Assembly (NCBI GenBank): GCA_002633005.1
Contig: NMRA01000209.1
Span: 1-64,000, forward strand
Direction: 5' to 3'
From: Phoronis australis
Lineage: Eukaryota; Animalia; Phoronida
DNA: 64,000 bases
Position 1 is the first letter of the stretch, and each line of letters opens with the position of its first letter. A model generated the notes under the pieces. It searched no databases. It was not told the origin of the DNA and was given only the letters and a program-made list of their open reading frames with translations. Positions 1 to 47,533 of this stretch are shown piece by piece. The translations under genes and the position numbers were made by a program.

Positions 1-183
1 AATAGAGGCTTGTACTCACTCCCCGTCCAAAAACCGGGAACTTTTGCTTTAGTCCACTTGAGCTTGTAAAAGAGGTTTCAGACTTGTTCCTTACTCGAAT
101 GAGGGGGGGATTTTCGGCAAACAATCGCCAGTTCGTTAACATTATTCCATGAGATTCGACTCCTAAAATTACATGCTCCGACA

Positions 184-326
184 AGCCAAATTAGAATGCC
201 CAGTCTCAACCAATAAACAATCCTGGAAGCAATCATGGGCGCATATCAACGCTTCGCGTTGCTCTTGCTATCTTTCGGACAATCTGGGTAAATTGCAGCC
301 AAATTAGAATGCCCAGTCTCAACCAA
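184..326. repeat. 30-bp direct repeat
   Basis: agccaaattagaatgcccagtctcaaccaa occurs at 184-213 and 297-326. Confidence 0.85.
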
Positions 327-1853
327 AAACGAACTATAAAACCTTCCGAAGCCCTGAAATCCCCTCTAATTCGAGAACAATTTCATAACGGTCAGTTTTC
401 TTAGCAATTTTTGTGATGGAAGTCGTGTTTACAGCCGCCTTTCCCTTCTGAGCTACTGAATGAAACTTACATGTCTAATGAATACCTTGCCAATATCAGA
501 GAAGTTTCGCAAAGCCACGTGAACGTGAATTATCACGCTCGCATATATAATTTCCACGCCATACTTGTACATGCCATTGTTGGCTGTGACGTATTCCGTT
601 AGTGTTCGCGTATTTTACGCGAATACAGGGAGATTCACGTCGCTTTAAACGCAAAATTGTGGCCCCTTTTTATTTCTTATTTGGCAAGACATCGAAATGA
701 TTTTTATTTTTATAGGGTTTTCAATCTTTCTTCGTTGTTTCAGGATAAAGTGAGAGCTATTTTTGTCTATAAATGTCCAGCTGAAGGAAGGCCTTTTTCC
801 AAAATCTTTATTCTGTTGGGGTTCGCTGGATATCATAGAACTGGAATTATAGATTTTGACAGATATGATTTTGTGTTCATAGTTAATTTTATTATGCTTA
901 ATTTAAATGCGTCTATTTATTTTAAACTGCAAATAAATTGCGCATTATAAGAGTTGGTCATTTTTCAAGTGTCGGAGTTTGTAGAAACGACTTTTTTCAC
1001 ATTCAACATATATTCCCTTGCATACCTGTAGCAGATTGGAGTACAGTAAAATACAATACAATTAAACAAAACATATTTCATTCAAAATTCTGTAAAACGT
1101 ACATGTACAGATTGATCTCCCATAGGCTTTCTCAAAGTAAAACATGGTGCAGAGCTGGAACGGGAAAAGTTTGGAATTTTTGTTCATAATAGAATCATGA
1201 GCGATTAGATGGCAAAATATTTCAGAAATATGGATGAAAAGTGTTCGGAAGAACTTTTCAGTGATAACAGCTCCCTGCGCGTATACGCGGGGTATTGGAA
1301 CTTCGAAGTTGGCCTTCCAATCCAAGAGTTCTGTATTTTTCAAAGACTAAAATAATGTTCACTGCATAGACATCTAAAAGTACCTGTCTATGGTCCGCTG
1401 ACTTTCACTTTAGCACGTGCACGCTGAGCGGGCTGACAAGCATTTTTTTCAAATTCTCCCACTACGTTAAGTGTAGAAAATGGTGGCTGAATAAACGAAC
1501 GAGTTATCAACATACGACCCATACCCTACTTCCGTGAATTACATGGCTGATGTTATATAATAAAAAATTATTGGCTTTCACAATCGGTCAATATGTGGGT
1601 TTTCAGATGCCAAAATCTTATAATGTCCTTGGGCTCCGCCACGGTCATCTTCACATTTTTGAGGTCTGAAAACTAAAATTCTGACCAATAGTTGTATAAT
1701 ATTGGACTTAAGAATCACCTTCACGAACTGCGTGCAAGTTAAAGTGGAAAATACGACAGTCTCGAATTTTGTTTTGTCGTAGATTTCCTTGTACATGTAC
1801 CTCTGCTGACGGTGCTTTGAGTAAATGTTTGATGACAACAACTTTGTATTCAG

Positions 1854-2063
1854 AGTGTAGATTCAAAGTGGGATTTAGCCAGCGAAGGACCTTCAAACAA
1901 TACTGACGAACTTGGGTATGACGTCTACGCAAAGGCATTCAAAGATTTGGTACGGGACGAGCGTATTTCAAACGGCACTACGATAGGGGTCTACGGAAGT
2001 TGGGGCGCAGGAAAGACATTCCTACTGAACCGCTTGAGTGAAAAATGCAAGAAGAATAAGAAG
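1854..2063 (+). CDS. KAP-family NTPase-OTU gene, exon carrying Walker A (no start codon; upstream exon needed)
   Basis: Acceptor ttgtattcag|. Manual translation gives SVDSKWDLASEGPSNNTDELGYDVYAKAFKDLVRDERISNGTTIGVYGSWGAGKTFLLNRLSEKCKKNKK, with the KAP-type D-x-LG-Y motif and Walker A GxWGxGKT. The exon is 210 nt, phase 0-0, and ends at donor AAG|GCAAGT. Confidence 0.88.
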
Positions 2064-3687
2064 GCAAGTGATATCTGCCGAGCTGCGTAAGGTCGCCAAT
2101 TGTTTTAGTTCCACAAATAACCATTACGCCTGTAGGTGCCTCATAGCAGTTTTTTCCACATGCCACCCGCGATGACAGAGGTGTTAATTTATTACCGGTG
2201 CCTTGTCAATTTCTATGGCTACAATCTTTCACATTGCTACTTTTCGTAGCACTGTTGAATGTTGTATTTGTTTAACATGGCTTCTTATTATAAGGTAATG
2301 AACACAACATCATAGCATTTAGTCATTCTCATTGGTTGAAAGTTGGGAAACCCCTTTCAGTTTACCACGTATGGCCACCACCTTTGACTTGGGTAGTTAC
2401 AGTTTATTAAAACCGGCAGTGACCAAAGTAAACAAAATCAAGGGAAGCCCGATCCAGTGGTTTAAGAACAAACAAGTACGGTGCATAAAGGCGTGTGCAA
2501 GTGGTGGCGATGTGGTCGGTTTACTTACGACCAAGACATGCCTACTGATTCCCACACACGGATTTCCGTGTGTCGTTCATCATGTTTCCACAGGGTCACT
2601 TTTCACGATAGGTAGAGCTAGAGCTCTGTCAGAGGGTATTTCCTTTGCCTACATATTGAATTGAACCGGTATTACTCTAGAAATCGTGGATGTCTCTGAA
2701 CGACCTTATAGGTGAATATGGCGAATTCGAATACCCACCCCAGTGGACGTAGCCGCCTTGATTTCTTTCATCTTCAGTACATCTCGACTTTACACAGTTT
2801 TCTGTTCTGAAAGACAACACGATGCTAGGCGTGGACTTCCTCTCAGGGTTATGTACTCTCATGTTACAAATCGATCTTGCATCTCTCCACTGAAAAGTTG
2901 TTCCTGCTTTTTTGTGTTACCGTTGGATGAATTAGTCTTTATTGCAAATAAATTTATCCATAATTCGTTCTTGAAATATCAAAATTGTCCAACTGACAGT
3001 GATTACAACTTGTACATGGTTTATATCCCGAGACTCGTATAGAAATAACTTGCTTGCGCTACCATCTTGATTAAGAAATGCCACATGTTTCTTCATTCAC
3101 GATCATGTTCATTCGATTCACAGTTCCTCCATTTCCGTTTTTCATTATTATGTACATAACTAGCCTATATGTAATATACACGTTATAACGCCGTATGGAA
3201 AATGCCGAGTACTGTATCGCATGAGTGTATTCGCGATAGAGTTTGAGATACGCTGATGTACCTGTACTTAATGACTCGCAGATCTTCCAATGATTACATT
3301 CCATGTACTTTCGCCTAACACTCCTCTAATTGTTAGATAATAGTAACTCTTATTAATTGCATAAGCAAGTGTCAAATTTATAATGATTCCCAACAATGAA
3401 CAACTAGTTATTGTCAGTTTAAACTAATTGCCTACGTGAAGTCCCCACCAACCATCAATTCAATTAATTGCCATTCTCAACCCATAGATGAACGAAACAT
3501 CTGAATTCATGTAATAAGGTGCTCGTCATCACGTGACCGAAGTTTTTGAATGGTGTCGATTTTGAATGAAACAAGAAATCGTTTAAAAACAATCCTACAA
3601 GTTCATGTATAAACTGCATCTTTTACGACCTAAACGCAGGCCACTCTGACTCAGATTATTCACGTCCTAATTACTTTCTGTCAACAG

Positions 3688-5770
3688 GAATCGCAAGCCT
3701 CAAGCTGTTGCCAAATGAAGACAAAATTGTGCAGGCTTTTCTCGTGTGACGTACCTGTATGTGCCTATTTAACATTGCTTCTGTTCGTGTTACTGCCCGG
3801 TGCAGTCGCAGCTGCCGGAGGTTCGCTTTTTGGATATTGTGACAAAAACAACACAACAGGAAATGCAAGCGCGACAATCTCACAAAAACTTTCATGTGAA
3901 ATATGTGTCATTTCGATTTCCGCCGGAATTGTCGGTATAGTTATCCTAATCGCGTTGGTTATGCGTTGTTATGACGGTGGATGCAAAATGTTTTATGAAT
4001 TTCAAAAAGTCCTGTTACTCGTGTTTTTCAAACGACCATATCATCAACGACGCACCACGGACATCAAATCAACCCCAAGCAACTTAAAAGTGATTGAAGC
4101 TCGTTTCAACGCTTGGGAGTTCGCTGGTTCTGACCTTCTGTGGGCTGGCATTGTTACAAACATTTGTAATGTTGTAGAACAAGAATTCGGTTTCTGGAAA
4201 ACTAGATTGTTCCGTTTCGTTGAAGGCGAAGCCACCGAGGACATTGAGGTTTTCGTTGAAGGCGAAGCCACCGAGGACACTGAGCCTGAAAACAGCGGAG
4301 TCGCAGACAAGTCTTGCTTCAGGTCATGCTGTGGGGGGTATAACCCGGTAACCCAGGAAGAAAACAAGACACCCGGATCACAACCAAATCTTGTGCTGGA
4401 TGAGCGGCAATGCTGTCTAGGGATACCCTATTCCTTTACCATTTTCATGATAATCTTCATATTTATTTTTTCAGTAATGGTAATGTTTAAATTTGCCCAA
4501 ACAACACCCCCAGCCACGCGCGAGCAACTCCTATTTGGCGTAGCGCTTGTGGGATTGGTTACAGCGCTAATACCGATAATTAAAACAACCGCGGGTTTGA
4601 TTATTTCCCTATGCCAATCTGAGGCGGAACGTGTACTGCGGATGAAAAGGCATTTGACTCGTTCAAATTTTGACGTGGAATTAGGATTTATGAACAGAGT
4701 CAAGTTAGAAGTATACTTTCTCAAGGATTTTATTAGATATATGGAGTTCATATACCAAACACATTATCGCTTACTTATAATCATTGACGATCTAGACAGA
4801 GTAGAAAAACACAAAATTCACAAGATTCTGGAAGCAGTTAATATATTGTTCTCCGATAACACTCTGCCCTTCATTTCGTTAGTTGCCATTGATCCACAAA
4901 TTGTCGTGAAAGCTATCGAGCAATCATTCCCCGAAGTGCTGTTGAATGCTAATATTAACGGTCACGAGTATTTAAAGAAAATCATTCACCTGCCTTTTTG
5001 CATCCCTTTGCCTACGGACAAGCGAGTTAAGCAGTATGTTAACGCCTTGGTGAAAACAGAAAAGTCCAGTAATGACGTCCGTAATGACAGTAATGTTGAA
5101 CCTAAACACTTTGAACGTGGAACCGTACATGATATCCAAATGAATGAGCGAAAGGCGGACGGTGATACGCCGTCAAAAAGTGATGAGCAAAGAGAAGTTG
5201 AGAATGCCTCGTTAAGAACAGCGATGGATGGTTTGAGAGAAATGAGTGAATTCCTCGCACCTAACGCGCGAAATATCAAACGTATTCGTAACATACTGAT
5301 GGCAACATTTAAACTTGTGATGAGAGGGGAAAAGATGAGCGACAATGAAATTCACGAGCTGGCGCGATGGGTGCTTTTCACAGAGCAGTGGCCATATAGA
5401 GCGAGTTGGTTGATACATGTATGCGAAAAGAGCGAGTACGATTCGGAGAAACAGCTATTCACGCTATACGAAGAATGCGAGAAAGAATTGGCCAACCCGT
5501 CCGACTGGAAAGCGCTACTTAGCCTTGATCACAATCCAAGGCTGTTCAAATTATTCCTAGAGAGATATGAGTTTAAAATGAGTGACGTGAAAACCTTTTT
5601 GCCATTAACTGTAAACCTTGACTACTCAATCAGGACAATAATAGTGAATGCTGAGTCGGAGAAAACTGCAAAAATGTATCGCGAACAGTTGAAATCGAAG
5701 GAAGTTGGAAAAGCTGGAGAAAATGCAGTGGAAACGAAAACACCAGGATACAACAGAGATACCAATGAAG
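3688..5770 (+). CDS. KAP-family P-loop NTPase (NKPD1/Kidins220-like), main exon with four predicted TM segments
   Basis: Acceptor ttactttctgtcaacag| is in frame with the 703-aa ORF. Motifs: FNAWEFAGSDLLWAGIV, Walker B LLIIIDDLDR, NGHEYLKKIIHLPFCIP, PNARNIKRIRN, WVLFTEQWPYRASWL. Four hydrophobic stretches. Phase-1 donor GAAG|GTACTA. Confidence 0.92.
4215..4286 (+). repeat. In-frame 36-bp tandem duplication inside the KAP exon
   Basis: tttcgttgaaggcgaagccaccgaggaca at 4215 and 4251, encoding FVEGEATEDIEV/FVEGEATEDTEP. Confidence 0.95.
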
Positions 5771-7762
5771 GTACTATTAAATTAATGTTTATAATTTTTC
5801 AAATCAGAATATTTTGTTGTATCTAACTGCGTCAAACTGTCTAATAGCCGTCTTTCAGTGGTGCAGTTCAGAGGCACGCCATTCTGCAAACCTACATTTC
5901 GTGAGAGACAAAAACATCGCCGAATATCCGTTTAACAGCAAATCACAATGGGGACGACCCAATGTTTCCCCATCAGTAACCGAATATTACCATTGCGTTG
6001 AAAGCGGTCAAAATTGTTTGCTGCACAAATTCAGAGGTCACTTTCGCCATTGTCATCACTGTCGTTACGGCACATATGAAATGATGCTAATGTCTTTCTG
6101 CGTTTCAAGGGCGCGCCCCTATTTTTATGTAAAGACACTCTTAACGCTTAAACTCATGTCGCATTTTGGGAAACTGTCTAGTTCCTTAGAAAACGGTTTT
6201 CCTGTAGCATTTACCCGAAACGTTGTAAATTTACAAGCACTCAACGTATCGATATTTTTGCAAGATTTGTTGTAAGTTTGTATAGTTTAGTACATAAATG
6301 AAATACAAATGCAAAACAATGGTCACTTCAATGTCTCGGATTTTGAGAACCATTTTGATCATAGACAATAGATTTCACCAATGGAGTGCACTGCTTTCCA
6401 AGAGGAAAAACTTTGACAAGGCAATAAATTTTAAAAAATACATTTGCTCATGCTTTTATAAAAAACAAAAATTTACACTCAATGTTAAAAGTAGAATTTT
6501 TAGCAAACAGTTTGATATAAAATCATTAATATCGGTTCAGTTACGGCCATTTAGCAGCTGAAGGTTTATCCTCAAAGTATAAGACACAAGAATTTACCAG
6601 TGAGTGACAAATGTCGTATAACTTCGATATTTAAAAATATTCATTTATACTCCACTTTGTTGTAATAGATATCAAAAGAAAGAAAGTTTAAATTTTGCGC
6701 TATATTTCTTGTTTTCCACTACTTTGCACGTTAATAGATATGAGCTTGTAAAAATCATGAAAAGGGGCAAAATTTTGCTCTTACTGAATTTTGGCCACAT
6801 TGGTTTGCTATGTACATGTATTGTAGACGTAGTTAGATGAGAAACTACTACATGTAGGTCGATCCAAAATTCCTACAAAATCTCAAAATTCAAACTAAAT
6901 TTCACCCTAAACGACTGCAAATTCAACCAGATGAAAAGCTTTATCCAATTGACTCAACCTTTTTCTTGGACCAAAAGTCTCGATTTTCGTGTTCAACTGT
7001 AGCAGTATTCGGGCCCATCAACAGACAGCTTGTCAGGTCAGTTCTGGAGTGTTTCGTTGCGAAAATCCGACTTGTGTGGCTAGCATACGCAATTTAGTTT
7101 GCATAAAATACAGAAAGTTAATTTCAAACACAAAAATTTTTCCTCGAAATGCGCAAAATAAAAACGAAAGTTTACCTTCGCTCCTACATGAAACCAAGAG
7201 AACGGAAGTTATGAATCCTCCTCACGTAGATCGCGTTAGACCGCGAGATATGACGGAGTCGCGAATCTTTTAACGATTATCTATGGTTTGATGTTCGTCA
7301 TTCAGTGGGAGAAACTGGTTCTCGAAATGCGTGACCCTTTAAGTGACCATTACCCAAATCGCACACACTCGTTTAACAGTTCAGTCTCTCTGGAATAGTG
7401 AGCAATCAAATTTGTTTTAAAATCTTTGAAATTGCGTGTGAACAAAACTCATATACTACATATGAACTTATGGTTGCTGAATGTTTCGGGGGTAAAACTT
7501 GCCCGCCTGGAAACAGTAAGCATATGATGTCAAAGTTGGTGTACCATCTGTCAATCCAGCCCATTTCCTTTTCTCGTTACATAACGCTTTGTTACTTTTC
7601 AAACACTTCTCATTGCGTTCACATTAATGGATGACACCCTACATCAGTTGGACAGGTTTTTCTCTACTCACTTCTTAACAGCTTTTTATTTCATGATTTT
7701 TATGTATTAAAATCGTTTATTCGTTTTTCTTCATATCTGTGACGTGTTCCTTTCCTTTCCAG

Positions 7763-7938
7763 CGCCACGTGAACGACTCGAGAAAAACGTCGAAGCCAGT
7801 GGCATGACGTCTCGCCGTCAAACGCCACGTGATGGCAATTGCTTCTTCCATGCCATGGTAGCTCAGTGTCAGCGAACGAAAACTCACCCTTGTATCACAC
7901 ATAAAGAACTTCGACAAAGAACCGTTGCCTATATGACT
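7763..7938 (+). CDS. Exon encoding the N-terminal half of an OTU-like cysteine protease domain (Cys loop)
   Basis: Acceptor tttcctttccag| in phase 1, matching the 5770 donor. Translation PRERLEKNVEASGMTSRRQTPRDGNCFFHAMVAQCQRTKTHPCITHKELRQRTVAYMT contains the OTU D-G-N-C-x-F motif. Phase-0 donor |GTAAGT. Confidence 0.88.
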
Positions 7939-8269
7939 GTAAGTGTTTTGAAAGTAATCAGGATCCATGTCAATTGTATCGCCTCCGACATGGAATGTTC
8001 TAAATACATCAATTTCATAAATTAATTCCATAGCCAATGATCAATGATTCAGGACAATGTGGTTATAAACGCTAGAAAAATTCTTTCGGTATTATTTGAA
8101 GCAAACAGATCGCGTATGGGTACCGCACTGTTGCTCAGAATGGTTTGTTGTCACTTTTATGCTCCTGCATATTAATTTGTGGACTCATTATGCCGTCTTC
8201 CTCGTCCCTCTGGTGTGCAGCATCCAGGGTCCTCTGCTCTATTTCCAAAACCTTTTGATATATGTACAT

Positions 8270-11200
8270 GAAATTTTGTGCATTTTTCTTTTATGAATGG
8301 GACGGCATGAGCGGATCCGACCACTGGTGTGCCCCTTTGTGGCAATTTTAGTTTTTAAGATTCCCTCTGTATCTTCAAAGGTCCTCAACATATTTTCATA
8401 AAATTTGGCAGATAGGCTTTTATTGGTGATATGACGCTATCCTTCCTGTTTTCGAATGAATTCAAGGTATTTTGCGTCACCCAGTGGCCATTTTGTTTTC
8501 GAATCTGTTTTTTTGGCGTCCGCACCTCTGTCAACCAAACCACTCTGAGCATGATTATGAAAATTGGAATATATGGTCCTACTAACAATTTTAAGACGAT
8601 TTCGACTACAATGGCGCCTTTGGTGGCAGTTTTGGTTTGTTTTTGCACTCCTGGCTGTATCTCCTAAACCCTCGGCAGGATCTTTGTTAAATTCAGAATA
8701 TGTATTTACATGAAGCTGACAAGGGACCGCCACAGCTTTGAAACGGATGCGACGAACGCGGTGTCCGCTAATGGCAATTTCCTTTTTTTCCGTTTTCTTC
8801 TGTTTCTTTGAAATTTCTTGACAGATTTTTGTGATATTTGGTAATTGGGTTTCTATTAAAGAAATGGTATCAAGACCAACTTTTAGGGTGATTCGACGTA
8901 TGTTGCTTCCAGTGGCCATTTTTTACTGTTTTCTAGTCTATTTCTGAAGTCCGCTCTAGATTGTTCTAAAAACCCCTCGACCCCCTCGATCGAGTCTACA
9001 CAAGCTCGACTCCATCTGAACATACATGTAGACCAAGCGTTGACCTACAGGACCAACGAGTCGGGCCGTGTGCTCGGCTGGCTTTTTCCCCTTCACTTTT
9101 TGGAATTAAGAGAGTGTTCGGCAAGTTACAAAGCCAAAAAGAGAAAAAACATCGCCACCAATTTAGATCTAAGACCTACCAACGTTACAAATGTTGTTTC
9201 CAGCAGAGCGTAATCGTCTCGTCTTCTCTTCAGTACATGACAGGTTTAAGCTTTTTGGGAGAGTACCGAAGATTAATTTCTGCGGTAAATACAGCTGGAA
9301 AAAAACAAATTTGTTAACTAAAATAAATATTTCAACGTTATGTGGAGTATAATGTAAACGAGTGTACAGCAGAAAGCAAGTTATAAAAATGTGAAATTAT
9401 GTGCATTCACATTAACGTACTCTCTCCCCAAGTTTAGTGGAGCTGGGTCATTGGTAGCCGCTTGTGGAACTATTTCCATGTCGACAATAGCGCGCTCACA
9501 ATTGCTATTTCAGATCACGTTCTCACGACACTTTCTGTTTTTAACCACCTGACTTGAGCCAGAGCAGATTCAAGTGCGGGGTGTCTTACGACAGTCATTC
9601 AGCGACGAAATGTGCTTATGAAATGTGTAAAAAGCGCGAAGATAAATCTATTGCCGCATGTCGTGGGTAGAGGGTGTTGTGAATAGTGGGTCGTTAGGGT
9701 TGGGGGCTGAGGGGTCGTGGGCCGACGGGGTGTGGGGGTCGAGGGGTTTTGGAACAATCTGTCCGCCCCTCTATCAACCAAACCAATCTCAGAGTGATTT
9801 TAAAAACTGGCACCGACTCTCGTGGGACACATTGACAGTATGCGTCGGCTTTTTGGGAAGCTTTTTGTGCTTTGACCGCAAATTTGTTGGGAACTCACTA
9901 GAGCAGGACACCGTAAATGGTATCAAAAGAAAGAACAACTATTCATGGTTTGTTGTTGAACCTCTAATTTATGTATTGAGTTTTGTACTGGATAAAGACC
10001 GCTGAAGTGAAGCACCTGTGGAATACATGTATCTAGACCCAAGTGTCACACCTTGTAGTACATATAATTGTGACGGGACGCTCGTAACTATGCTTATTGT
10101 TATTCTTACTTAGTTGCAAATGTTCAGTTATTCTTATGCTAATGTCTTTGTTGCGTCTCAGTGCACATAATGTAATGGAGACGATCAAAAGCTAAGATTG
10201 CCTGTGGGCTGATGATGATTTCCGGACCATACGAACTACTGTGACTCCTCGCAATGGCAGTTTTTTGCGTCTTTGGCTGTATCTCCCAAACCCTCTGCAG
10301 GATCGTCATTAAATTTGGCAATTTATATCAAAGGTGACAACGGACAAAGAGGACATTTGGATGGATCCGATTACTGATATGCCCTCATAGTGGCAATTTA
10401 TTTTTTCGTTCTTTGTGTCTTTGAAACTCCCTGGTTGATTTTTATGAAATTTAACAATTACGTATTTATTACTGAGTCGAAAAAGTTTCCGTTTTGGGAT
10501 AGATTCAACTTATAGCGACTGTTTTACTGTCATGAAATTTTGCAAATAGTTTTCCTATTAAGGAGACGACGACACTTACTCATTTTCAGGCTGATTTGAC
10601 GTATTTTATGCCACTTGGTGGCAATTTTAATTTTTTTAATGAGTTTTTGACATCACCTTCCCTATTCGCCAAATCACTTGAAGGATCCTTATTAAAATTT
10701 GGAGATGTGTTCCTGACGAGAAGACTGAGGCTTACGTTGGTTTTCAGGCGTGTTCAACTACTCTGCCACCCCCATCCTCTGCCTCCAGTGGTATTTTTTG
10801 CGTTCACGGTTGTATCTTATTTACCTGTTAAAAGATTTTTAGCAGATATTTTCCTATGAAGATGGCAACAGATGACGATTATTGATTAGCCGTATTTTGC
10901 ACCAACTAGTGGCCATTTGAATTATTTTTAGTTAATTTTTCGTCGTTTACTTCTGTATCTGCCAAACCATGCAGAGGATTATTATGAAAATTGGCAAATG
11001 TGTTCCTACTTACAAGAGCATGACTGACGTGGTTTTCAAACAGGTCCAACGTCTGTGGTGCCCCTTAGTGACGTTTTTTCGCATCAACGGCTGTATCTGC
11101 TAAACCCCTTGCAAAGTGTTTTTGAAATTTTGCAATTTATTGTATTCCTATTAACTTGAGAGCGGATGGATGGATTCGACTACTGCTGCGATTCCTAATT

Positions 11201-11380
11201 ATGGTTGTTTGTTTTTTTTTCATAAAATCTGGCGAATAATTTGAGAGACGACGACACCTTCCACTTTTTGGATGGGTTCAATGTATTATGAGTCATCTAA
11301 TGGCCATTTTCAAGAAACAAATAAACTCCCCTAGAAGCACACCATTTGCGGTGCCGTCGTGGGCATGCTTAAAATCAGTT
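8270..11380. repeat. Intronic array of degenerate subrepeats (possibly a Helitron/Helentron-type non-autonomous element), interrupted by a MITE
   Basis: Recurring motifs gcc..tagtggc(a/c)atttt, ggctgtatct..aaaccc and gattttatgaaatttggc in 8270-8945 and about 10200-11380. The family assignment is inference. Confidence 0.55.
8958..9760. mobile_element. MITE with ~27-bp TIRs and an imperfect TSD
   Basis: Left end agattgttctaaaaacccctcgacccc; right end ggggtcgaggggttttggaacaatct. Flanks gtccgctct / gtccgcccc. Confidence 0.75.
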
Positions 11381-11870
11381 TCGGGATGTTTCTCATACTA
11401 TTTGTTGTCAAGTATCACATGTCAAGTGTCAAAAGCGTCTCAATTGTAGGTCATTTTGACCATCTGAAGACACGACTTCATGTACATGTATATCACAGTG
11501 TTGAAACAATATTTTTTTACCAACAAATGTGATTTTTTTAAAGTCCATGATGGTTCTTTATAGTTTAATCATTAGATAGAAACATATATTTACAAACAAC
11601 TGTGAATTTTTAGATGTCAAGCGATGGTTCTTTATAGTTTAGCCAATGAACAGAAAACTGACTATTTTCCCTCTAAAACAATGCCAAGGAATGAGTTTAT
11701 GTGATAAAAAGTTGGTTTTGTTCATGCTCGGGTAACCTATGGAGAATCGTATGACAAAAATATTCCCAAAATACTCATTTCTTGTGATTTTTATCAAACC
11801 ATTGTTCGTGATATGTCATTAGGCGCAGTTGTTGCTTAGAGTGTAATATGTTCTTGTTTGATTTGTCCAG

Positions 11871-12149
11871 AAACATCAAGAAAAATACGAATCGTATGTT
11901 GTGGGCAAAAGCTGGAAAACCTATATCGCCGACATGTCAAGAGATACAACTTGGGTTGATCACCCTGCCGTAGAGGCTGCAGCAGAGGTCCTCGATGTGA
12001 AACTACACATACTGCAAATTTCTTCAGATGATGACAAAAAGCCAACTGAATTAATCATCAACAAAGAAGCTAAAGGTCCTACGTTTCAACTTAGTCACGA
12101 AGACGAAGTTCATTATGAGAGTCGTACATGTATGCCAGTGTCGCACTGA
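11871..12149 (+). CDS. Probable terminal exon: C-terminal half of the OTU-like domain (His loop) and stop codon
   Basis: Acceptor tttgatttgtccag| in phase 0. Translation KHQEKYESYVVGKSWKTYIADMSRDTTWVDHPAVEAAAEVLDVKLHILQISS...TFQLSHEDEVHYESRTCMPVSH* has the OTU Y..M....W helix and the HY catalytic motif. Confidence 0.87.
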   Translation, partial: KHQEKYESYVVGKSWKTYIADMSRDTTWVDHPAVEAAAEVLDVKLHILQISSDDDKKPTELIINKEAKGPTFQLSHEDEVHYESRTCMPVSH

Positions 12150-12924
12150 AACCAGTGTACGGTTTGCACACATTGGAATGAATCATACCGGGCACGTTTA
12201 TTAGGCATTCAAATACATGAAGGCAGGGCAGTGTCTTTGGTACTACATGGGCAACATGTTGGTTAGAACCTACCAGACGAGTTCATTATGTCAGATTAAC
12301 GAAGGTGATAAAGGAAGGTTTATCTAAAGTTTTGCTGGACCTTATTGACAAGTTTGTGTACTTAGTCAAATATCTATAAAACTGGTAATTTTTGACACGG
12401 TGACAGAGAATCTTCTGAAAATAGAAAGCTTGTAAAATTTGATTTCATACTTTTTCCAGTGTAACATTAGTTGGGTCAAGTGATCACGAATTTCAATAGA
12501 ATGTAGCAAAAAACAAAGGTACATTTAGAGCAAAATGGCAGTATCAACATTATAACCAAATTTTAGTTGATGTAAATATTCAATATGAAATCTAAAAAAG
12601 GCTGTTACTGTTTTCTCCATTATCGTTTTCGTTTCATCCAATTTTCATTGTTTCAAAGAAATCGTAACAGCCCTATTATTGACAGTTCCTCATGCAAATG
12701 TGGAATATTTTAAATCCAACTGTCAACAGCTTTTTGGAGAACAGTGTATAAGGCACACTATCTGAGGGCACTCTTGGAAAGCAAAGCTGACTCCGAACAA
12801 GCCATCCTAGTTTTTAAAAAAATATGAAACTCGCATAGGAATCCGACTGCCAGTCGAGATACAGGATATTCCGAAGTTAGCCAAAGTTTTCTAGGGTACA
12901 ATAAAACCTTCTTACAATGACTTG

Positions 12925-13685
12925 AATACATACACAAAGCGTATCCATAGTGGCGTGCGTGAAGTAATATCCCACGAAACATTATTCCACGTATCGACTG
13001 AGACCGAAGGTCGAGGTGGATATGTGGAATAATGTCGAGTGGGATATTACTTTATGTACGCCAATCGAGGTGCGTTTTGTATTTATCCCATACGTTTAGA
13101 ATTCGAAAGTTTCTTTCAATTTTCCTCAGATTTTCTAAATACTTCTCTCAGACTGTTCACGCTGTGGATCACATCCTATATGTGTGTACTTACGCCGCTA
13201 GGTTGCAAGTTTTCTGCAGTAAAAGAAACAGTTTTAAATGTAGCGATCTATTACTTGAAAAGAGACAACAGAGAAAAAAAACAACGGCAACTCAGCACTG
13301 CACTTGTAACATCTTCTGAAAATAGTTAAATAACAACAATATATGGTATTGTAGTTACCGTGGAATCGGCGCCTGAGTTGCAGTCGATATAATATTTAGC
13401 AATTGAAAACAGAGAGAACTGTCATATAATTAACAGTCCTGTTCCGGATGTTACGGTGGAAACTTGATTGCATGTTGAGTGTTACTCACACTGTTGCAAT
13501 TGCATTATTTAAACTATTTTCTTAAAGTTTGATGATCGAACCGGCTATCAACGTCGAATCGACATTGACTTTCCTTTTGAACTTTCCGTTTCACAGGTCG
13601 CTGTTAAAGTAGTGCTGGAAGTGAATACGGAAACATTATTACATGGCCGTATTTCCCTTTACTGATTCAACGCGTATGGGATAAA
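12925..13685. mobile_element. Interspersed non-autonomous element with a ~110-bp internal hairpin (Crypton-like?), copy 1
   Basis: Colinear homology with 46787-47533. Hairpin 12951-13063 centred on gaccgaaggtc. ttatcccatacg (13083) is inverted to cgtatgggataa (~13673). Confidence 0.75.
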
Positions 13686-13784
13686 GGTTATTACAGTGGA
13701 TCTTTTCTTTATATTGATATTGCGCGTGTGCAACTAGAATGACTATTGACTGTAGGATTGTATATAAAACTGAGACACGCCTCC

Positions 13785-14290
13785 CGTTCAGTAACGCTAG
13801 GACCTCGCTAAAAAGCAAGACTACGTGAGATGACGTGAGACCCTGACCTGTACTTCAAATGAAAGCACGTAACGTTAGCTAGATTTTAGCTAGGTAGTAG
13901 CGTAGGTCCTAGCGGTTACTGAACGTACGCCCGTTCCTTTTCGCGATTGCGTGACATGCATAGCCAAATGTCACGAAGACTTGCATGATCTCGTTTTTAT
14001 CGCTAGACACTTGTTTTACGGAATAAAATCACGACCATGGCTTTTCCCGTAACCCCAAGACATTTGCCAACCTTTTGCACGAAATCTTGGTTTATCCTAT
14101 AATTCAACATTTCAACCTCGCATTTAGTGGCCGCCACATTGCTAGGTTACATTAGTCATGGTAGAGTTCAGCAAGGTTAGGACATGGTTAAAAGAAAGTA
14201 TTCGCGAGATTACGTGGAACATTGTCGTGTATTTTAAATTAGTACGCATGATTTTGGCTAGATTTTAGCAAGGTGCTAGCGTTACTGAAC
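13785..14290. mobile_element. Small inverted-repeat element
   Basis: cgttcagtaacgctaggacct (13785) is inverted at 13904-13925 and again at about 14270-14290. Confidence 0.6.
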
Positions 14291-16194
14291 TCTATCCAGG
14301 TCTTGAGAATAGTTGAAAAGCAATAGCCCTTCACTTACTTGATTTTGCGTGATTTTGTTTTTTGGTGAGATTCTTCGATCTACAAAACACAGCCCGCCTA
14401 TGTTGCCAGTTGTTTACTACCTTATCGGATTCGCTCGTCTTCTGGGTGCAGGCTACATGTTTACCTTCCAGTGAAAATTTTTCGTCTGCAAATTGAAAGA
14501 TGGACATTTTAACACATTGCATTGTGGAAAAAACACGATTTTTGTGGCTTGTCATGTTCCCAGAATATTTCATTTTGCCTGATCTTATCAGGTATGATTC
14601 TCTCATAGGTAAAATCCAACTTTTTGAAACTTTGAAATATTTGGTGGAGTCCCAAGTGCTCTGACCTTCAACTATTTTTAATGTCAAAACACTAGTTTAG
14701 GGTTCTGGGAAAAGCGGGAGGCTCTTTTTGGTGTAGATTGAACACCATACAAAGAAATTGATATGGATACTAGATTTAGCATATAAACCGAATTCGATTT
14801 GACAATCAGCTCAGTATTCATTGACTCGTTCCGTGTCCGAAAGCTATATGCTCGTTACTTAAATAATTTCAAGACATTTCGAATGGGACAAAGAGCACTT
14901 AAAAAGTAAAGCTTAACTTTGGGGAAAATGGTACAGACTTAGTTTATGGTGTGCTGTTTAAGTTTATGTTATGGTGTGCTTTAGATAACTGTTTTGATTT
15001 GTAATGACAGGATTTTAGCAATCATAATTATTCATTGTCCAGTTCAGATTAGCGGAGGGCTGGAGTTATATACAGCTCTACCAAGCAGAGACGGTCTTTT
15101 AATGAGATTGCAAGGCTAACATGTCTGTTGCTATTGTATCGGTTTAGGGTGTACATGTAGTTGGTGTGAATGAAAATGATTAGTATAGTCAGTGTGGGGT
15201 TTTTTGAATAAATATATACATGTAGCAATTGAAGAATATACTATAATCTATGTTGTATCGGGTGGGACCGTTGAGTTCTGTACAAAGCGAACTTCAGAGA
15301 ATGATTTGTCTTGCATGAAATTCGATCAGCCCCGTCTATAAGATCGCTGGATGTCATTTTCGAAAAATCAAATCAACGAAATTCCAAAGCGGAAAGATAA
15401 CTTTACACTATTCATCGCTTAGCGTTACTCTTCGTTTTTGTCCCCTTGGTTGAGGTGTCCCCGTGCGTTTGTGATTGGATTTGCTCAAAGGTAAACGAAT
15501 TTGATCATCGCTGCGCTGGCCCAAATTGTCACAACAGCTCAACTTGACACATCTTTGGAATTTTAATAATTTGACTCAGCACTCATAGCTCCAATCTCAC
15601 AATTTGCCAAAATTGTTTCCGACAGTCTTGCGTGTGAAAATATGTGCCTGTACTATGCAACTGAGGCAGCCACCACAGTTACCGAACGTGTCACTAAAAG
15701 GCTGCGCCCTCCTCATGGCAAGCTACATGTACATGTATAGCTTGTGGACAAGGTGGGGTGAGGTGGAGCTTGGGTCCTTTATTTTTCAAAACGTTCTTGG
15801 TAAATTTAACTAGAATTGCATATACAACCGGCGTGCAAAATGCTGTTAGAAAAATACTCCAATTAGACATGTTTTCAAATTTATTCACAACTCAGCTGAA
15901 CCCTCGCATACTTCCTGGGCTGTATAGTATCAACTAATTGCTTAATCTTAAAAACTAAGAACCAAAGGGGCCCATCTGTCGTCAAATCTCGTGTAGTGGC
16001 AATTTCTATAGAATATATATTTTCCCATCTGCCAAACTTTGAAACCCAGTTGTTCTTAAAACGAGTGATTACGGCCCGGCCACAGCATACCCTGGCGGAA
16101 GTATTTATTAGGACAATGACTTGACATTATTATTCATCGGTTTGTATTTCTGCGTGTTACTAAAATTCCTCATAGGTATGGAAATTGGAAAAGC

Positions 16195-17392: not shown

Positions 17393-18841
17393 GGGGAAAG
17401 CAACCTTTTGCGTATCATTCTTAATAAAAATAAGGTTATTTGATTATCCCAAACGCATGCTTCAGTTAATTACAGCTCTTCATGATTTTATTAATTAGCC
17501 GTGCGCTATTCCGGAAGTGTCATTTAGGGGTTAAGAATTTCTCGAATTTTCGTTTCTAGTGCGTTCGAGTAACTGTGAGAATCTTTTCTAGTGTTGTTTT
17601 TTGCTGGTCTCCTAAAATTGTCGTCACCACTTCCCATCTACGAGTATTCTACGACAAGCTAGGATGCTAGATAACTCAATTACGCTGTATCTAGGAATAT
17701 TTTTGTTTGTAATAGAAGTGGGTGGATATATGCATGTTTCAGCCCGAGTATAGCGCGTCAGAATACAGGCAACTGTTGAGAGGGATGAGGCAGATACTCA
17801 GGACAGACGTGGTGGGACGTCTTGGTCCAAAGGCAAGGTGTGCACTGTAATGCCGCCGACCTCAATGGAATGCCAATGCTGTTCCCACTGAGCATCCAGA
17901 CTGCTTACAACCAGCCGTGTGACTCCCTTGACACATACTTGAACCTTCTAAATTGCTCCAACGAATACTTAAGTCAAATCCACAATAAACTTATCAAAGT
18001 TTGTCTCACTGGCCTTACCACTGGACGATGAACTGTCTTCCCCACTGGGTGTCGAACTTGGTCAGTACTGACTGCCACTATTCAATATCGCTGCAGGGTT
18101 GCTTACAGGCTCTGGGATGGAGACAACATCAGCACAGGTCGAATCATTGCTAGTGCCCGGAATGACACGCTCTAGAGTACAGTCGGAGGTGCGGATGACA
18201 GTAGATGAAGCGCCCCCAGTTACTGTAGAGGTCACAGATCGCGAGGCTCCTCGCTTCGAAAATGCACTTCTCCGGGGCGGCGACGAGGCACTATCTGGAA
18301 TCAACAGCGACAGTGTGGCACCCTTCTTCAGCGGTTGTTTTGCAGGAAGGTTCATCAAGTCTGCGCATGTATCTCTTTCGTAATCCAACGGCAGAAAATT
18401 CTTGCCACACACTCAGTAATTCTCCACTGCTCTGGGCGTTGCACGGAAAGTAACGCTGCGCTCTTCACGCCAACCCCCCCAAGTATGGCAGAGCGTGTCA
18501 TTGTTTGGAAAGCGTTATAATGGCATACCCAAATTGCGCGAAAAGATAATGAGTACACCTCGGTTCGCAGCAACCGTGCGGCGTGTTGATTGACTCGTAA
18601 ACAAACGCAAACGGCAACCAAATTTATCACAACAGTGGTAAAACAAGGAGTGACTCGACGGGTCACACAATCAGAAGACGAAATGTCGGGAAATTCTTAA
18701 CTCCCTAAACTTCACTTCCGAAGTAAGGCACGACTTATTAACAAAATTATGCGAAGCCTTTGTTAACAGTAACAAATGTCAAGGATAATCAAAGAACCGC
18801 ATTTTTTGCTAAAAATGACATGAAAGAAGTTGCCGTTTCCT
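17393..18841 (-). mobile_element. Kolobok-like DNA transposon relic with ~165-bp imperfect TIRs and a THAP-domain remnant
   Basis: 17393-17557 aligns to the reverse complement of 18675-18841 (e.g. cggaagtg..tttaggg..ttaagaattt). Flanks TCAA / TTAA. The minus-strand peptide VCGKNFLPLDYERDTCADLMNLPAKQPLKKGATLSL resembles a THAP C-terminus. Confidence 0.7.
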
Positions 18842-19059
18842 TTAACTAAAAGTGTTCTCTAATCGTCTGCGTGATCCTATCTCCTGCGCGCACTCCACTT
18901 CGCGAAGTTGACTGCCGGAGTACGACCCGACGGTGATTACGTAAAGCGCTTTGAATCAGAAGCAAATTCGAAATTATTACAGATTGTTTGGTAATAGATT
19001 CGCTGAATCTGCTTCTGTACATGCTCACAGGCAAAGTTGATTCCATTTGCTCTCAGGAA

Positions 19060-20790
19060 CAAGAGATGTCTCCTGTGGGTTTGAAGAAATGTCCAGTCAG
19101 TCCCCTGGTCCTACATTTGCGAACTAGAAATTTGGTTTATTTTGGATAATGATGCTTCTGATGTAGGCATACGTGGTAATCTGTTATAGATTTAGGAGGG
19201 GAAGGAGAAGGTTTTTGCATATGCTAGTGTCTCCCTGACTTCAGAATAGCGTCGTTATTGTACTACGCGTCAGGAACTTTTGGCTTGGCTATAAGACCTA
19301 TCCGTTTTACTAGACAGTTTCGTCAAATCTTGCTGGGTAAACCATTTCGGGTGCACATAGATCGCAGTCATCTGCAATGGCTGATTTTGAAAATCATAAG
19401 AGTCAGTTAGCCAGCCAATATGAAATGTTAATTGAGAACCGCCAGGGTTGTCATCATGGTAGGCCTACTTCTCATGCTTTGTCTCGTTTGGATTATCCTA
19501 GTAGTTGTTGGGAATACCGTCATAGAGTATAGAGTAAGATTGGAGGATTTACCTTGCAGTGGATGTTCGTATTGTACTCGCTTGCACGGTGCCTAGAAAA
19601 AGTTTATAGTTGAGGCGGAAGATGTTCAACAATTGTTTAAACGTAGGCGGATAGCACTTGTAAAGAGGCTTAAGCGTCAAGCTAGTACTGAGAGGGAGCC
19701 GATATGGGAGGCGTCCAAGGAATTGTAAGCAAGTTGCAAGATTGATTGTGTAACCGCTGGAAAGGATACTGTTTCGGAACAGCGTGAAGAACCCCATTTA
19801 TTATTGTTGTTGTCCTGGCTGGAACAGGGGGTATCGCCTGATAAAGGAGATTTATTTTTAGCTAGCAAGGAGTCAAAGACTTTGTGGGTCAATCGTTTTC
19901 GGTTTTTGCTTAAGTGGGTTGTGTTTGGTCTAAGCGATAGGAGGATGATGAGCTGGTTTGTTTTATTCCCTCCTCATTACGACAAGAGGAACATGCTCTT
20001 AATATTTATATTCCCTGTTCGGGACATCAAGGTGTAGCTCGTACTACTAAGGATATGAAATCAAAGTGTTTTGGCCTGGTATGACCTCGCGATTAAGCAG
20101 TATTATAGCACATGTGACAGGTGTGGTCTGTGTAAGAAATCCAATTTATAACGTAAGAAGCCCTTATATTATATTCATGCATTTTTGCCTATGGAGCAGG
20201 TGTATTTAGACTTGTTGATACATTGCCTTTGACACTCCCAGGAAAAGAGCACGTTTTAGTCAAGGTTGATCAGTTCATACAGTGGGTTAATTGCATCCAA
20301 CAAGTCCCAGACAGCAGTGGTTACCGCTCAGGCTGTAGTGGAACGTTTCTATTCCCCGTTTTGGATTTCCGCTACAGATCTTTACAGATACGGGAATAAC
20401 TTTGATAGCAAACTATTCGTGCACTCAACTATGCACTTAAACAAGGGTGCACAAATCTAGTACGACCGCTTATTGACCTAGTGCTAATGGAGAATTTGAG
20501 CGATTTATTAGCACTCTAATGGATGCAGTGCGATGCTTTGTGGATCTGCAGCAATCGGATTGGGACCTTACATTCTGCAGATAGCTTGCACCTTGTGATC
20601 ATGTGTTAATAGGAATACTGGGTTTAGTTTTAATCACCTCAGGTTTGGTCGTGAAATTGTGGTGCCAGCCACCGGAGCTTGTTTATACTGTTCCTAAAGA
20701 GACAACACTATCAACTCAGTATCTAGCCAGTTCGATTGAAGTTATTGGGGTGTCTTATGAGACTGCGGGAGAAGTCCTACAAGTATCCCA
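19060..20790 (+). mobile_element. Degenerate Ty3/Gypsy LTR retrotransposon pol fragment (RNase H and integrase)
   Basis: ILDNDASDVGI...EGKEKVFAYAS.SLT.E*RRYCTTRQELLA (RNase H); FRQILLGKPFRVHID; GHQGVART...TCDRCGLCK (integrase HHCC); STTAY*PSANGEFERF (integrase core). Many stops and frameshifts. Confidence 0.9.
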
Positions 20791-21459
20791 GGCTTATAAC
20801 GTTGAATGGGGCTATTCGGAGAATTCTCCTCGCGGTGTCGCTGCTGTACTAGTGGGGATTGAATTGCGCATGCGTGGCTGTCTGCATGTAAACAACTGGT
20901 AAAAGATGGAATTTTTATCAAAATACGTCGTCGCGCTAAGCATTATTACTGCTAATTTCCCTGGCGCATGTCTTCGACGGGTGGCCACAAATTCCCAAAA
21001 GACCTAAGGTTACTATATTCGTGGACAACTGCGGTCAACAGGGTCAACTAACTGACAAAAAGTGTGTGGATGCTGAAGCCCCGTGTGTGCTCTATGTCTA
21101 TGACTATGCAGTTCCATTCGGGGACTACACAACATTACTTGGTAAGTTTTTAGCAATCAGTTTCTATCAACATCGTTCGGTGATGTTATCCCCACCAGTT
21201 ACCCCACTGAATAACAGTTTTATTGAGTGGAACTAAGTGTTTCTTTTTGGAAACTCACCCGATGCCGGGTAGGCTAGCAGCACATATTCATATTGTCCTG
21301 GGTGGGAGTGCTCCCAAAATAAGAGGTGTATGGTACGTGATGCACAGAAGTCAAGAGTGACTTTTTCACAGCAGTTTCTCTTCAAAACTATGCTGTTTCC
21401 AATAAAATTCTCTAGATGAGTGAGTTTCCTTATTTTATCGTGGACCCCACCCCCAGGAC

Positions 21460-29975: not shown

Positions 29976-31640
29976 AGGAGAATGCCACCCAAAAACAACC
30001 TATTTTGTATCAATTTATATCGAGTAATTTTACTCGATAACGGAACGTTCGGTTGCGTTACCTGACACCTGACGGCAGACGGAGGTGTTGAAATTATCCA
30101 ATGACGTCATTGGTTTCACACGCAGTCTGTTCAGCAGTTTACAACACGGGTTACTGGTGTTAGCTCATGGGTTGAATTCATCGTTTAACACAAATAAATC
30201 ATCAAACTTCGATGTAAATCTCTTAAAAATACATCGAGTTCTTATAAAAACGTGTTGTTTTATTTCGCTGTTACGGATTTATTGGTATTTGGACACACTG
30301 TAGCCTACAAAATTCGGCAGGCCAATTTACTAAGGTCCGGGGTAGGAGCTTGGGGTCTGGAGATAAATTCGAAGTATTCTTGCGTGAAATACAGACAAGA
30401 GAACCTAGATCTGTGTGGTTTAGACTTGTGATTTTTTGAGTTCTAAACACACAAAACGCTCGTTATCCCGGCCAGTGGCTCGGAACCAGATCAGGCCCGT
30501 TACTGCCGCCGGGACTGGCACGAACATAAACCAGCTTGAGTTGGAAACTAATCCTCCAGTCACGAAAAGACTATAGTGAGCCAAAGAAATAATGTGCACG
30601 TAAGTATTTATGTGAACTAGCCACGAAAGTGAAAATCTACTTGCTTGTCGGGGGCCGCGCCGAAGTCTGGTTCCTCTTCCACAGACAAAGGTTGTACAGT
30701 AACAATGATTTGAATAATGTATTTGTATTTCTAAATAAAGGTTCCCCTAACACGTGACCATAGCATATCATATCATATGAAAATCGAGTAATTGTTTCAC
30801 AAGAGCTTTCTGTCAGCTAACACTGAATTAGCATGCGCTCACACGGCCTCGGTGCCCGGTCAAATACCTTTATTGCCGGCTTCAAAAGCCGGTAACGCAG
30901 TGGCTTCTCAACATTTTCACTCACGAATACTGCAAAGGCATTACAAATTGTATCTAATGAGACAGACTTTGTTTCAGTTTTATATAAGTATTGGTTAGGA
31001 TGAGAATAATTCATTTCGAAACACAGCGCAGAAAATATACGTCTACATGGCAACTCGCCCGTCGCTAATCCCGACTTAATCAAGAGCTCATCCAACGAAG
31101 ACTTCACGAGTCGGATCGTATACATGTAGGTTTCACAGGCTATCTGTTCCATGCGAACCAGAATACACTGATCAAGAAATACTAGACTGGTGCCGTGAAC
31201 ATGCACAGGCAGTGGAATATATGGATAGTTCTTTGGTATGCCGGAATTCGTCAGAGAAATCACTGTCGACGAAATGCTGGCCACAGACACGGAGATGTTT
31301 CACGGCCTCATACTTGCTATTAATAGCGTACCTTTCATTCTTCACTACTGCGAGACACTTTCTAAGCATTTCGGGCTCTCGATGAAGTCGAAAAAACGAT
31401 ATACCCGCTTTCTTCGCAGCTTCATAGTTTGGACAAGCTGGAACGATGCACGGCCGCAATATAACGGCATTCACTCTGCAGACGAACCACTGACGTCGCT
31501 GCGTCGTTTCTCACCTTCATGAAAGCGTTGACGCGACACCTCTCGCCAATTAAGGTGAGGTCGACCGTATAAGAGGCGATGTGGATATAGACCGATTAAG
31601 AACGGTAAAAAAGACTAATTAAATCGGGTGGCATTCTCCT
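29976..31640 (-). mobile_element. Kolobok-like non-autonomous DNA transposon with a THAP domain
   Basis: Perfect 15-bp TIRs aggagaatgccaccc / gggtggcattctcct. Flanks TAAA / TTAA. Internal THAP ORF at 31172-31474. Confidence 0.82.
31172..31474 (-). pseudogene. THAP zinc-finger domain (transposase N-terminal remnant)
   Basis: CIVPAC...GISFFRL...LRVCGQHF.DSDF keeps all four C2CH ligands. The conserved Pro and Trp are substituted. Confidence 0.8.
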
Positions 31641-46786: not shown

Positions 46787-47533
46787 TATGGAATAAATGC
46801 ACAAAACGTAAGGAGAGTGGCGTACATGAAGTAATATCCTATGAGACATTATTCCGCGTGTCGACCGAGACCCGACCGAAGAATAATCTCGAGTGGGGAC
46901 TTCATGTACGCCAATCGAGGTACGTTTCATATTTATCCCATGTGCTTCGAATTCCTATCTTTCATTTTTTTTCGGCAGATTTTAAATACTTCACTCAGAC
47001 TTTTCACATCGCAGATCACATCCGATATGTATGTACTTGCGAGGTAGGTTGCAAGTTTTCTGAAGTAAAAGAAACAGTTCTAAATATAACGATCTATTAC
47101 TTGACAAGAGATTACAGCGATGAAAACAATGGTAACTGTACATTGAACTTGTAAATCTCCTGAAATTAGTTGAATAACAAAAATATTTGATGCTGCAGTT
47201 ACCGAGGATTCGTCACCTAAGTTGCAGACGATACAATATTTAGCAATTGAAAACAGAGGCAGAAGTGTCATAAAATTAACAGCTTTGTACCAGATGTTAC
47301 GTTTGGGGCCTGATTGCATGTCGAGTGTTATTTATACTGCTGCAACTGTATTACTGTAATACATTCGTAAAGTTTGATGATCGAACCGGCTAAAGACGTC
47401 AAGTCGACATTGACCTACCTTTTGAACTTCCATGTCAGAGGTCACTGTTGAAGTAGTGCGGGAGGTAAATACAAGAAACATTTATTTATTACATGGCCGT
47501 ATTGCACTCGACAGTTTCAATGCGTATGGGATA
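46787..47533. mobile_element. Copy 2 of the 12925-13685 element
   Basis: Colinear similarity (e.g. aaagtttgatgatcgaaccggct, gcgtatgggataa). The hairpin apex is partly deleted. Confidence 0.8.

Follow-up and report, generated by a model that had tools for sequence, protein, structure and literature searches.

A candidate phoronid gene joining a membrane KAP NTPase to an OTU deubiquitinase-like tail

We analysed a window of 64,000 nucleotides (nt) from the phoronid Phoronis australis (GenBank assembly GCA_002633005.1, contig NMRA01000209.1, positions 1 to 64,000 of the forward strand), which is animal-type DNA with introns, repeats, assembly gaps and a THAP domain. Near its start lie four exons that can be read as one gene encoding a KAP-family P-loop NTPase predicted to cross the membrane in four segments and, spliced to its tail, an OTU domain that would probably be an active cytosolic deubiquitinase. 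We give this reading as a whole an even chance. Joining 1854-2063, 3688-5770, 7763-7938 and 11871-12149 again reproduced what a first-pass annotation of this DNA had proposed, namely a 2,748-nt frame of 915 amino acids with exon phases 0/1/0 at the three introns. The frame has a single stop, at its end. The Walker A and Walker B motifs, two membrane hairpins and charged linker described there were all located in the joined frame. Walker A lies at residue 45 and Walker B at residue 434; of the OTU residues, DGNC occupies 788-791, and Trp851 and His904 follow. As read from the DNA, we take the four exons to be real: the domain halves are colinear, on the same strand, in order and in frame, and are therefore not there by chance. 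The features of the model, all on the + strand, are as follows.

1854 to 2063, +: model exon 1 (lacking a start codon, hence not the gene's first); start of KAP, with a weak acceptor and a strong GC donor
1986 to 2018, +: Walker A, GVYGSWGAGKT; a pattern common to 91 fetched relatives
2064 to 3687, +: intron 1, GC-AG, phase 0; best score of 12 in-frame joins tried
3688 to 5770, +: exon 2; four membrane segments, the remaining KAP core, helical lid and charged linker
3757 to 3957, +: predicted membrane hairpin 1 (3757-3813 and 3901-3957); from hydropathy, low pLDDT
4432 to 4581, +: predicted membrane hairpin 2 (4432-4488 and 4525-4581); from hydropathy, model helices 248-272 and 279-309
4777 to 4800, +: Walker B, IIIDDLDR; conserved across 162 aligned relatives
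5644 to 5770, +: charged linker that follows the final conserved KAP motif
5771 to 5826, +: read-through of the 5770 donor to a stop (open reading frame 3634-5826); T-rich and intron-like, predicted KAP-only product
5771 to 7762, +: inferred intron 2, GT-AG, phase 1; donor in the top 10%, acceptor in the top 0.1%
7763 to 7938, +: exon 3, first OTU half; Asp codon 7831, catalytic Cys codon 7840, Pfam OTU 2-38
7939 to 11870, +: inferred intron 3, GT-AG, phase 0; donor in the top 3%, acceptor in the top 2.3%, filled with degenerate repeats
11871 to 12149, +: exon 4, second OTU half; Trp codon 11952, His 12111, Glu 12117, stop

The KAP assignment rests on exons 1 and 2, both of which match Pfam KAP_NTPase (PF07693) above its cut-off of 20: profile positions 1-54 on exon 1 (44.5 bits, E 1.6e-11) and 49-289 on exon 2 (94.8 bits, E 7.6e-27). 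The motifs that define membership, Walker A GxxxxGK[ST] and Walker B hhhDDLDR, are present. Between them, hydropathy picks out four hydrophobic 19-residue segments at residues 94, 142, 319 and 350; the available text of a recent report describes four helices as the membrane segments in or beside the NTPase core of the KAP family (10.64898/2026.03.01.708804). The predicted loop of hairpin 1 holds three N-glycosylation sequons (N124, N125 and N129). Because the number of membrane passes is even, and given the hydrophobic segments and the loop sequons, the NTPase and the OTU would lie on the same, cytosolic, side of the membrane. An AlphaFold model of exon 2 alone, built with 82 sequences, reached a predicted local distance difference test (pLDDT) score of 74 and a predicted template modelling score of 0.68; core and lid were confident and the first hairpin low. 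Foldseek returned nothing at E 0.001 for this model, its best match being RdrA at 0.022, and VIA-align placed RdrA (Z 10.7, root-mean-square deviation 5.0, 297 aligned) level with Cdc6/Orc1. The modelled core can be called AAA+-like, no more specific than that. Searching the PDB by sequence gave nothing for exon 2, and one further PDB sequence search gave only EF-hand proteins among the matches listed. Exon 2 also contains an in-frame 36-nt tandem duplication at 4215-4284, in an acidic cytosolic loop.

The OTU domain is divided between exons 3 and 4. Pfam OTU (PF02338) covers profile positions 2-38 on exon 3 (20.4 bits, by itself under the cut-off of 23.3) and 40-101 on exon 4 (29.3 bits, E 1.3e-6), so that the profile halves adjoin across the two exons with a gapless joint and the second stands above the cut-off. 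Exon 4 further falls in Atlas OTU clusters with a score of 0.95. The closest OTUs found belong to an OTU-Neuralized-PUB protein of the amphioxus Branchiostoma lanceolatum (P0191), which matches the structures of OTUD1, OTUD3 and OTUD5, and to an unnamed OTU-Mab-21 protein (P0192). Against P0191 the joined domain scores 85.5 bits and the halves alone 49.3 and 43.5 (35% identity over 139 residues joined, 43% for exon 3). Since the joined score exceeds that of either half, the joint between exons 3 and 4 restores a normal OTU. Searched by sequence, the PDB returned only weak OTU rows for exons 3 and 4, a word-indexed search of exon 4 against longer proteins scored none of 27 candidates and is a weak test, and viral contigs held no relative of exon 4.

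Whether this OTU would be catalytic turns on a few residues. It keeps Asp788, Cys791 in DGNC and His904 in His-Tyr. Weighing against activity, Val852 follows the Trp and Glu906 stands two residues after the His, at positions where the three closest OTUs read Trp-Gly and His-Tyr-Val. Gly after the Trp and Asp or Asn two residues after the His are usual in OTUs, not invariant, and an active human OTU also has Val after the Trp. The OTU described as intact in the first-pass annotation is thus complete in its halves, its Cys and its His, but departs from its closest relatives at Trp-Val and His-Tyr-Glu. Because Cys and His are kept but these two positions differ, deubiquitinase activity is probable, not certain. 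If the fusion is made, we have good confidence that Cys791 and His904, with Glu906 as third residue, would cleave ubiquitin chains.

The step that would make one protein of the two parts is the splice from 5770 to 7763. We scored splice sites with our own matrix, based on generic frequencies and not trained on Phoronis australis, and ranked them against all sites in the window. The acceptor at 7763 is within the top 0.1% of AG sites, followed by 3688 (top 0.7%), 11871 (top 2.3%) and 1854 (top 27%). Among donors, the GC donor at 2063 is in the top 0.07% of 2683 GC sites, 7938 in the top 3% and 5770 in the top 10%. The acceptor at 7763 requires a phase-1 donor, and 5770 is the first of three phase-1 sites among the ten GT sites in 5640-5830. 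Composition shifts across it, with T going from 0.10 to 0.47 and GC from 0.42 to 0.20. Nine consensus-like donors lie within intron 2, and for only one of them (7515) is there an open frame whose Met could start a separate gene; both OTU exons are stop-free despite 3.9 kb of repeats between them. Because the acceptor at 7763 is very strong, composition changes sharply at 5770 and transposon signs are lacking, a KAP-to-OTU splice is likely; judged on these signals, splicing from 5770 to 7763 would occur in at least one isoform with odds clearly in its favour.

The 5' end of the model is less secure. Its four-exon join stands as to frame and phases, but exon 1 is not the first exon and intron 1 needs a GC donor. 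The GT donors 2067 and 2086 at the end of the exon-1 open reading frame would have to be paired with weaker acceptors than the one available to GC donor 2063. The exon-1 frame is without a start codon and opens at the weak acceptor 1854; the 915 amino acids therefore represent a 5'-incomplete protein, and the gene starts further 5'. Searches of 1-1853 with tblastn (192 relatives), a scan for donors and Pfam turned up no upstream exon.

A different origin for exons 3 and 4, which we consider very improbable, would make them the leftover of a transposon (Ginger1, Helitron or a terminal-inverted-repeat element) behind a KAP gene, matching in phase by chance. The available texts of two reports lend it plausibility: Ginger1 transposases have C-terminal OTU domains and introns (PMC2836005), and Helitrons bear OTU domains (PMC9741609). 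The surroundings of the exons speak otherwise. The interval 1-16000 holds 85 open reading frames of at least 55 amino acids, 20 of them overlapping coding exons; Pfam scans of the 65 others, flanking the gene, met no transposase, helicase or RepHel family, the sole match being the exon-3 OTU. All 11 short inverted matches flanking the OTU exons lack a target duplication of at least 4, and control blocks hold similar numbers (4-15), in a search that would miss very old, decayed ends. Moreover, the closest OTUs found are parts of cellular multidomain proteins. The first-pass annotation had listed a transposon source among the outcomes that would undo its proposal; with neither a transposase nor inverted repeats plus target duplication nearby, a recent transposon origin looks unlikely, and an old one followed by capture is possible. 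Intron 3 itself is occupied by repeat families D1-D3 and D5. At 8240-11330 it carries a degenerate repeat family whose relatives are heavily transcribed, to a depth of up to ~150 and mostly in one direction.

RNA provides the principal counterweight to a fused product. We mapped three stranded raw-read runs labelled as the same species (~35 million records, 18-19% of each run), together with one contig set, to 1-13500 at a 90% likeness threshold, with at least three reads per joint. Exon 2 gathered ~40 read-equivalents in one direction, matching + strand RNA under the usual library convention. Exon 3 received no reads against ~3-5 expected (3.4 at even cover), for which the chance is 0.006-0.018 if cover is even, and exon 4 received 1.7 read-equivalents against 5.4 expected. 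A further 2.0 read-equivalents fell in 5851-6300, past the intron-2 stop, in one of the three runs. Neither joint singled out by the first-pass annotation (5770/7763 and 7938/11871), nor any other proposed intron, is among the 15 of 74 read joints listed. Together with the only moderate strength of donor 5770, these observations weigh against a dominant KAP-OTU transcript in the sampled runs; they neither prove nor exclude the join. The claim of a fusion therefore holds as likely from sequence, but the join lacks RNA support and exon 3 lacks reads.

One account of these data is that the gene in use makes KAP alone and ends either at the 5826 stop or in another exon, with the OTU exons a rarely used tail, a neighbouring relic or variable between individuals. 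We find this doubtful, though it is the weightiest of the alternatives. It accommodates a transcribed exon 2, an exon 3 without reads and the 2 read-equivalents past the stop, and many relatives do end soon after the KAP helical part. It fits less well with the intron-like composition directly after 5770 and the very strong acceptor downstream, and the reads past the stop are far fewer than the exon-2 rate (2.0 versus 12.8) and absent from two of the three runs. Certain coding parts are equally thin: observed over expected at even cover is 1.3/4.0 for exon 1 and 0.8/7.0 for the first 363 nt of exon 2. One contig shows 27 differences from the window over 284 bases; the source of reads may thus be alleles or paralogues so diverged that they fall under the 90% threshold. 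Both the thin cover of certain coding parts and the diverged contig weaken the RNA evidence against the KAP-OTU join. Elsewhere in the mapped interval, reads of either direction occur at 12151-12600, and we did not take them for 3' untranslated region. At 1-450, opposite-direction reads reach a depth of 33 in runs X1 and X2, with none in X3, and show many fixed differences.

We asked how widely the KAP-OTU pairing occurs among relatives of exon 2. A word-indexed search recovered 44 proteins, and the nearest protein relatives of the window come from marine invertebrates; a larger search gave 3125 representatives at E 0.001, and we examined the best 150. Pfam scans covered 178 KAP relatives (22 + 141 + 15). 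An OTU appeared in one, the Branchiostoma belcheri protein XP_019624206.1 (P0130), predicted as 'Kidins220-like', and was not found in the other 177, which we count against the KAP-OTU reading. This count understates fusions, because several of the closest relatives are single-reading-frame calls on ENA contigs, which cannot show spliced tails; several of these ENA relatives also begin after Walker A. P0130 has KAP, then OTU profile positions 28-126 (30.3 bits), then EF-hands. Relative to the amphioxus proteins P0018 and P0157, its sequence departs from the KAP tail and continues as OTU in register with the residue that opens exon 4, an arrangement suggestive of a shared intron position. As support for the phoronid fusion it is compromised: it has no Cys-loop half, belongs to another clade and may be a faulty model. 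Indeed, the model looks imperfect because it holds the second OTU half only, has no Cys loop, adds EF-hands and skips the KAP tail. Its close kin P0018, P0157 and P0198 are without an OTU, and a search with its OTU piece gave three matches among 109 candidates, with KAP in P0130 alone. The search for the combined architecture thus produced one amphioxus hit, but one with half of the domain. A metagenome scan that kept 80 of 182 loci, mostly short and distant contigs, gave no OTU and no Cys-loop motif (best tblastn E 0.036).

For the position of the phoronid KAP we built a quick LG+G4 tree of 46 rows picked from 162 (436 columns), with groups named after an earlier tree had been seen. The window KAP forms a long branch adjoining Lingula, four ENA proteins and P0047 (Shimodaira-Hasegawa-like approximate likelihood ratio test 89, unstarred). 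The approximately unbiased (AU) test rejected grouping it with P0130 (p 3.5e-5), with all seven amphioxus rows (p 0.005) and with NKPD1-type KAP-SAM rows (p 0.013 and 0.027). It lies outside the ankyrin-KAP-SAM clade, but a place beside the Kidins220 group is not rejected (AU p 0.47). Because the KAPs lie in different clades, the two KAP-OTU pairings, if real, probably arose separately. A position beside Kidins220, with the Trp-Val and His-Tyr-Glu departures, would also leave room for a fusion that is made with a weak or inactive OTU, serving as a ubiquitin-binding or scaffold tail on a Kidins220-like platform, with no switch and no special immune role. We think this improbable: the OTU retains Cys, His and the DGNC loop, and no SAM-like domain (PF23307) is matched on any of the four exons.

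Taking the KAP-OTU reading as the preferred one, we propose a mechanism in steps. Splicing from 5770 to 7763 would attach the OTU to the KAP tail; nucleotide-driven assembly of the KAP core might then cluster or free the OTU at the membrane, where it could trim ubiquitin off nearby membrane or signalling proteins. Such nucleotide control, given the fusion, is a tentative proposal that falls somewhat short of even odds. Defence would be the most likely setting, at lower odds still. A weakness common to both is that NTPase-protease coupling and an immune role are argued by analogy with bacterial KAP-effector fusions. As for origin, we surmise that the OTU, like several other domains gained by invertebrate KAPs, may have come in by shuffling, as a module of two exons entered in phase 1. 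The broadest version, that invertebrates keep an undescribed set of membrane KAP switches, diversified by lineage, that swap effectors in the manner of NLRs and bacterial KAP defence proteins, that the phoronid one is ATP-driven with an active OTU, and that the pairing was reached at least twice, once in amphioxus, is speculative and would be unlikely in full. A KAP-OTU protein, if made, would provide an animal KAP with an assayable enzymatic output and make the KAP nucleotide cycle testable as an effector switch in animals; the amphioxus KAP-NACHT-LRR and KAP-OTU models suggest a wider, unstudied invertebrate set.

Novelty holds in part. We found no paper on a KAP-OTU protein in the full-text literature searched, which lies outside most subscription journals and supplements, but a KAP followed by half an OTU already exists as a database model from amphioxus. 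In the available text of the sole paper with both terms, OTU stands for taxonomic unit (PMC12808166). Domain-architecture tables in supplements could list such fusions.

Further repeats lie downstream of the gene. A dispersed repeat occurs at 12924-13684 and 46791-47534 (78.5% alike), with a hairpin at 12934-13080. An element at 17426-18806 is bounded by 104-nt inverted arms, and its open reading frame at 18062-18412 has no Pfam match. By eye, 19000-20900 resembles a decayed pol region of a long-terminal-repeat retrotransposon, and the THAP domain at 31175-31510 on the - strand (E 1.5e-8) is probably a DNA transposon remnant. Rfam gave no match in 1-21000.

Among animals, KAP proteins have been known chiefly through the Kidins220 scaffold and NKPD1, itself little studied. 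The first-pass annotation had named Kidins220/ARMS and NKPD1 as the animal KAPs; this proved too narrow, since invertebrate KAPs also occur with NACHT-LRR, C2, ankyrin and PAW domains. The B. lanceolatum protein XP_066275097.1 (P0046) has KAP fused to NACHT and leucine-rich repeats and could be a fused gene model, and P0045, P0049, P0050 and P0193 are amphioxus C2-ankyrin-KAP and hemichordate PAW-ankyrin-KAP proteins. Among P0065-P0181, further rows of the larger exon-2 search, KAP carries an N-terminal TIR, caspase, C39 peptidase, lipase, M23, GH25, kinase or Roc-COR domain. Like the phoronid protein, the named non-Kidins220 KAPs of invertebrates combine the same membrane KAP core with variable flanking domains. 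They are database predictions for which we found no functional study. Lingula P0001 is the nearest row to the window KAP (37% over 397 columns); neither it nor XP_066275097.1, XP_066286223.1 (C2-ankyrin-KAP), XP_070579626.1 (PAW-ankyrin-KAP) or the tunicate KAPs have a complete OTU. B. belcheri XP_019624206.1 shares the order of KAP then an OTU piece starting in the exon-4 register, but differs in lacking the Cys loop, having EF-hands and belonging to a separate amphioxus KAP clade.

Like the phoronid protein, Kidins220/ARMS and NKPD1 are KAP NTPases of animals whose core contains membrane segments. Their relatives have a SAM-like domain, and Kidins220 also ankyrins, whereas the phoronid gene would have an OTU tail; N-terminal ankyrin exons were not found in 1-1853 and may lie outside the window. 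Bacterial EF_KAP and PifA likewise pair a KAP core with a fused region, and RdrA is the top structural row for the exon-2 model (Z 10.7, tied with Cdc6/Orc1). According to the available text of one report, Walker B and the fused region are both required for phage defence by bacterial KAP-effector fusions (PMC13552941). These proteins differ in being bacterial and acting against phage, and the same text describes no ubiquitin-directed domain in them. Available passages elsewhere state that KAP proteins often have accessory sensor or effector domains (10.64898/2026.03.01.708804) and that domain shuffling is a mark of amphioxus immune genes (PMC2575513). Finally, the phoronid OTU shares the DGNC Cys loop, Trp helix and His-Tyr loop of P0191 and the OTUD1/OTUD3/OTUD5-type OTUs, and differs from them in its Trp-Val and His-Tyr-Glu and in its predicted tether to a membrane NTPase.

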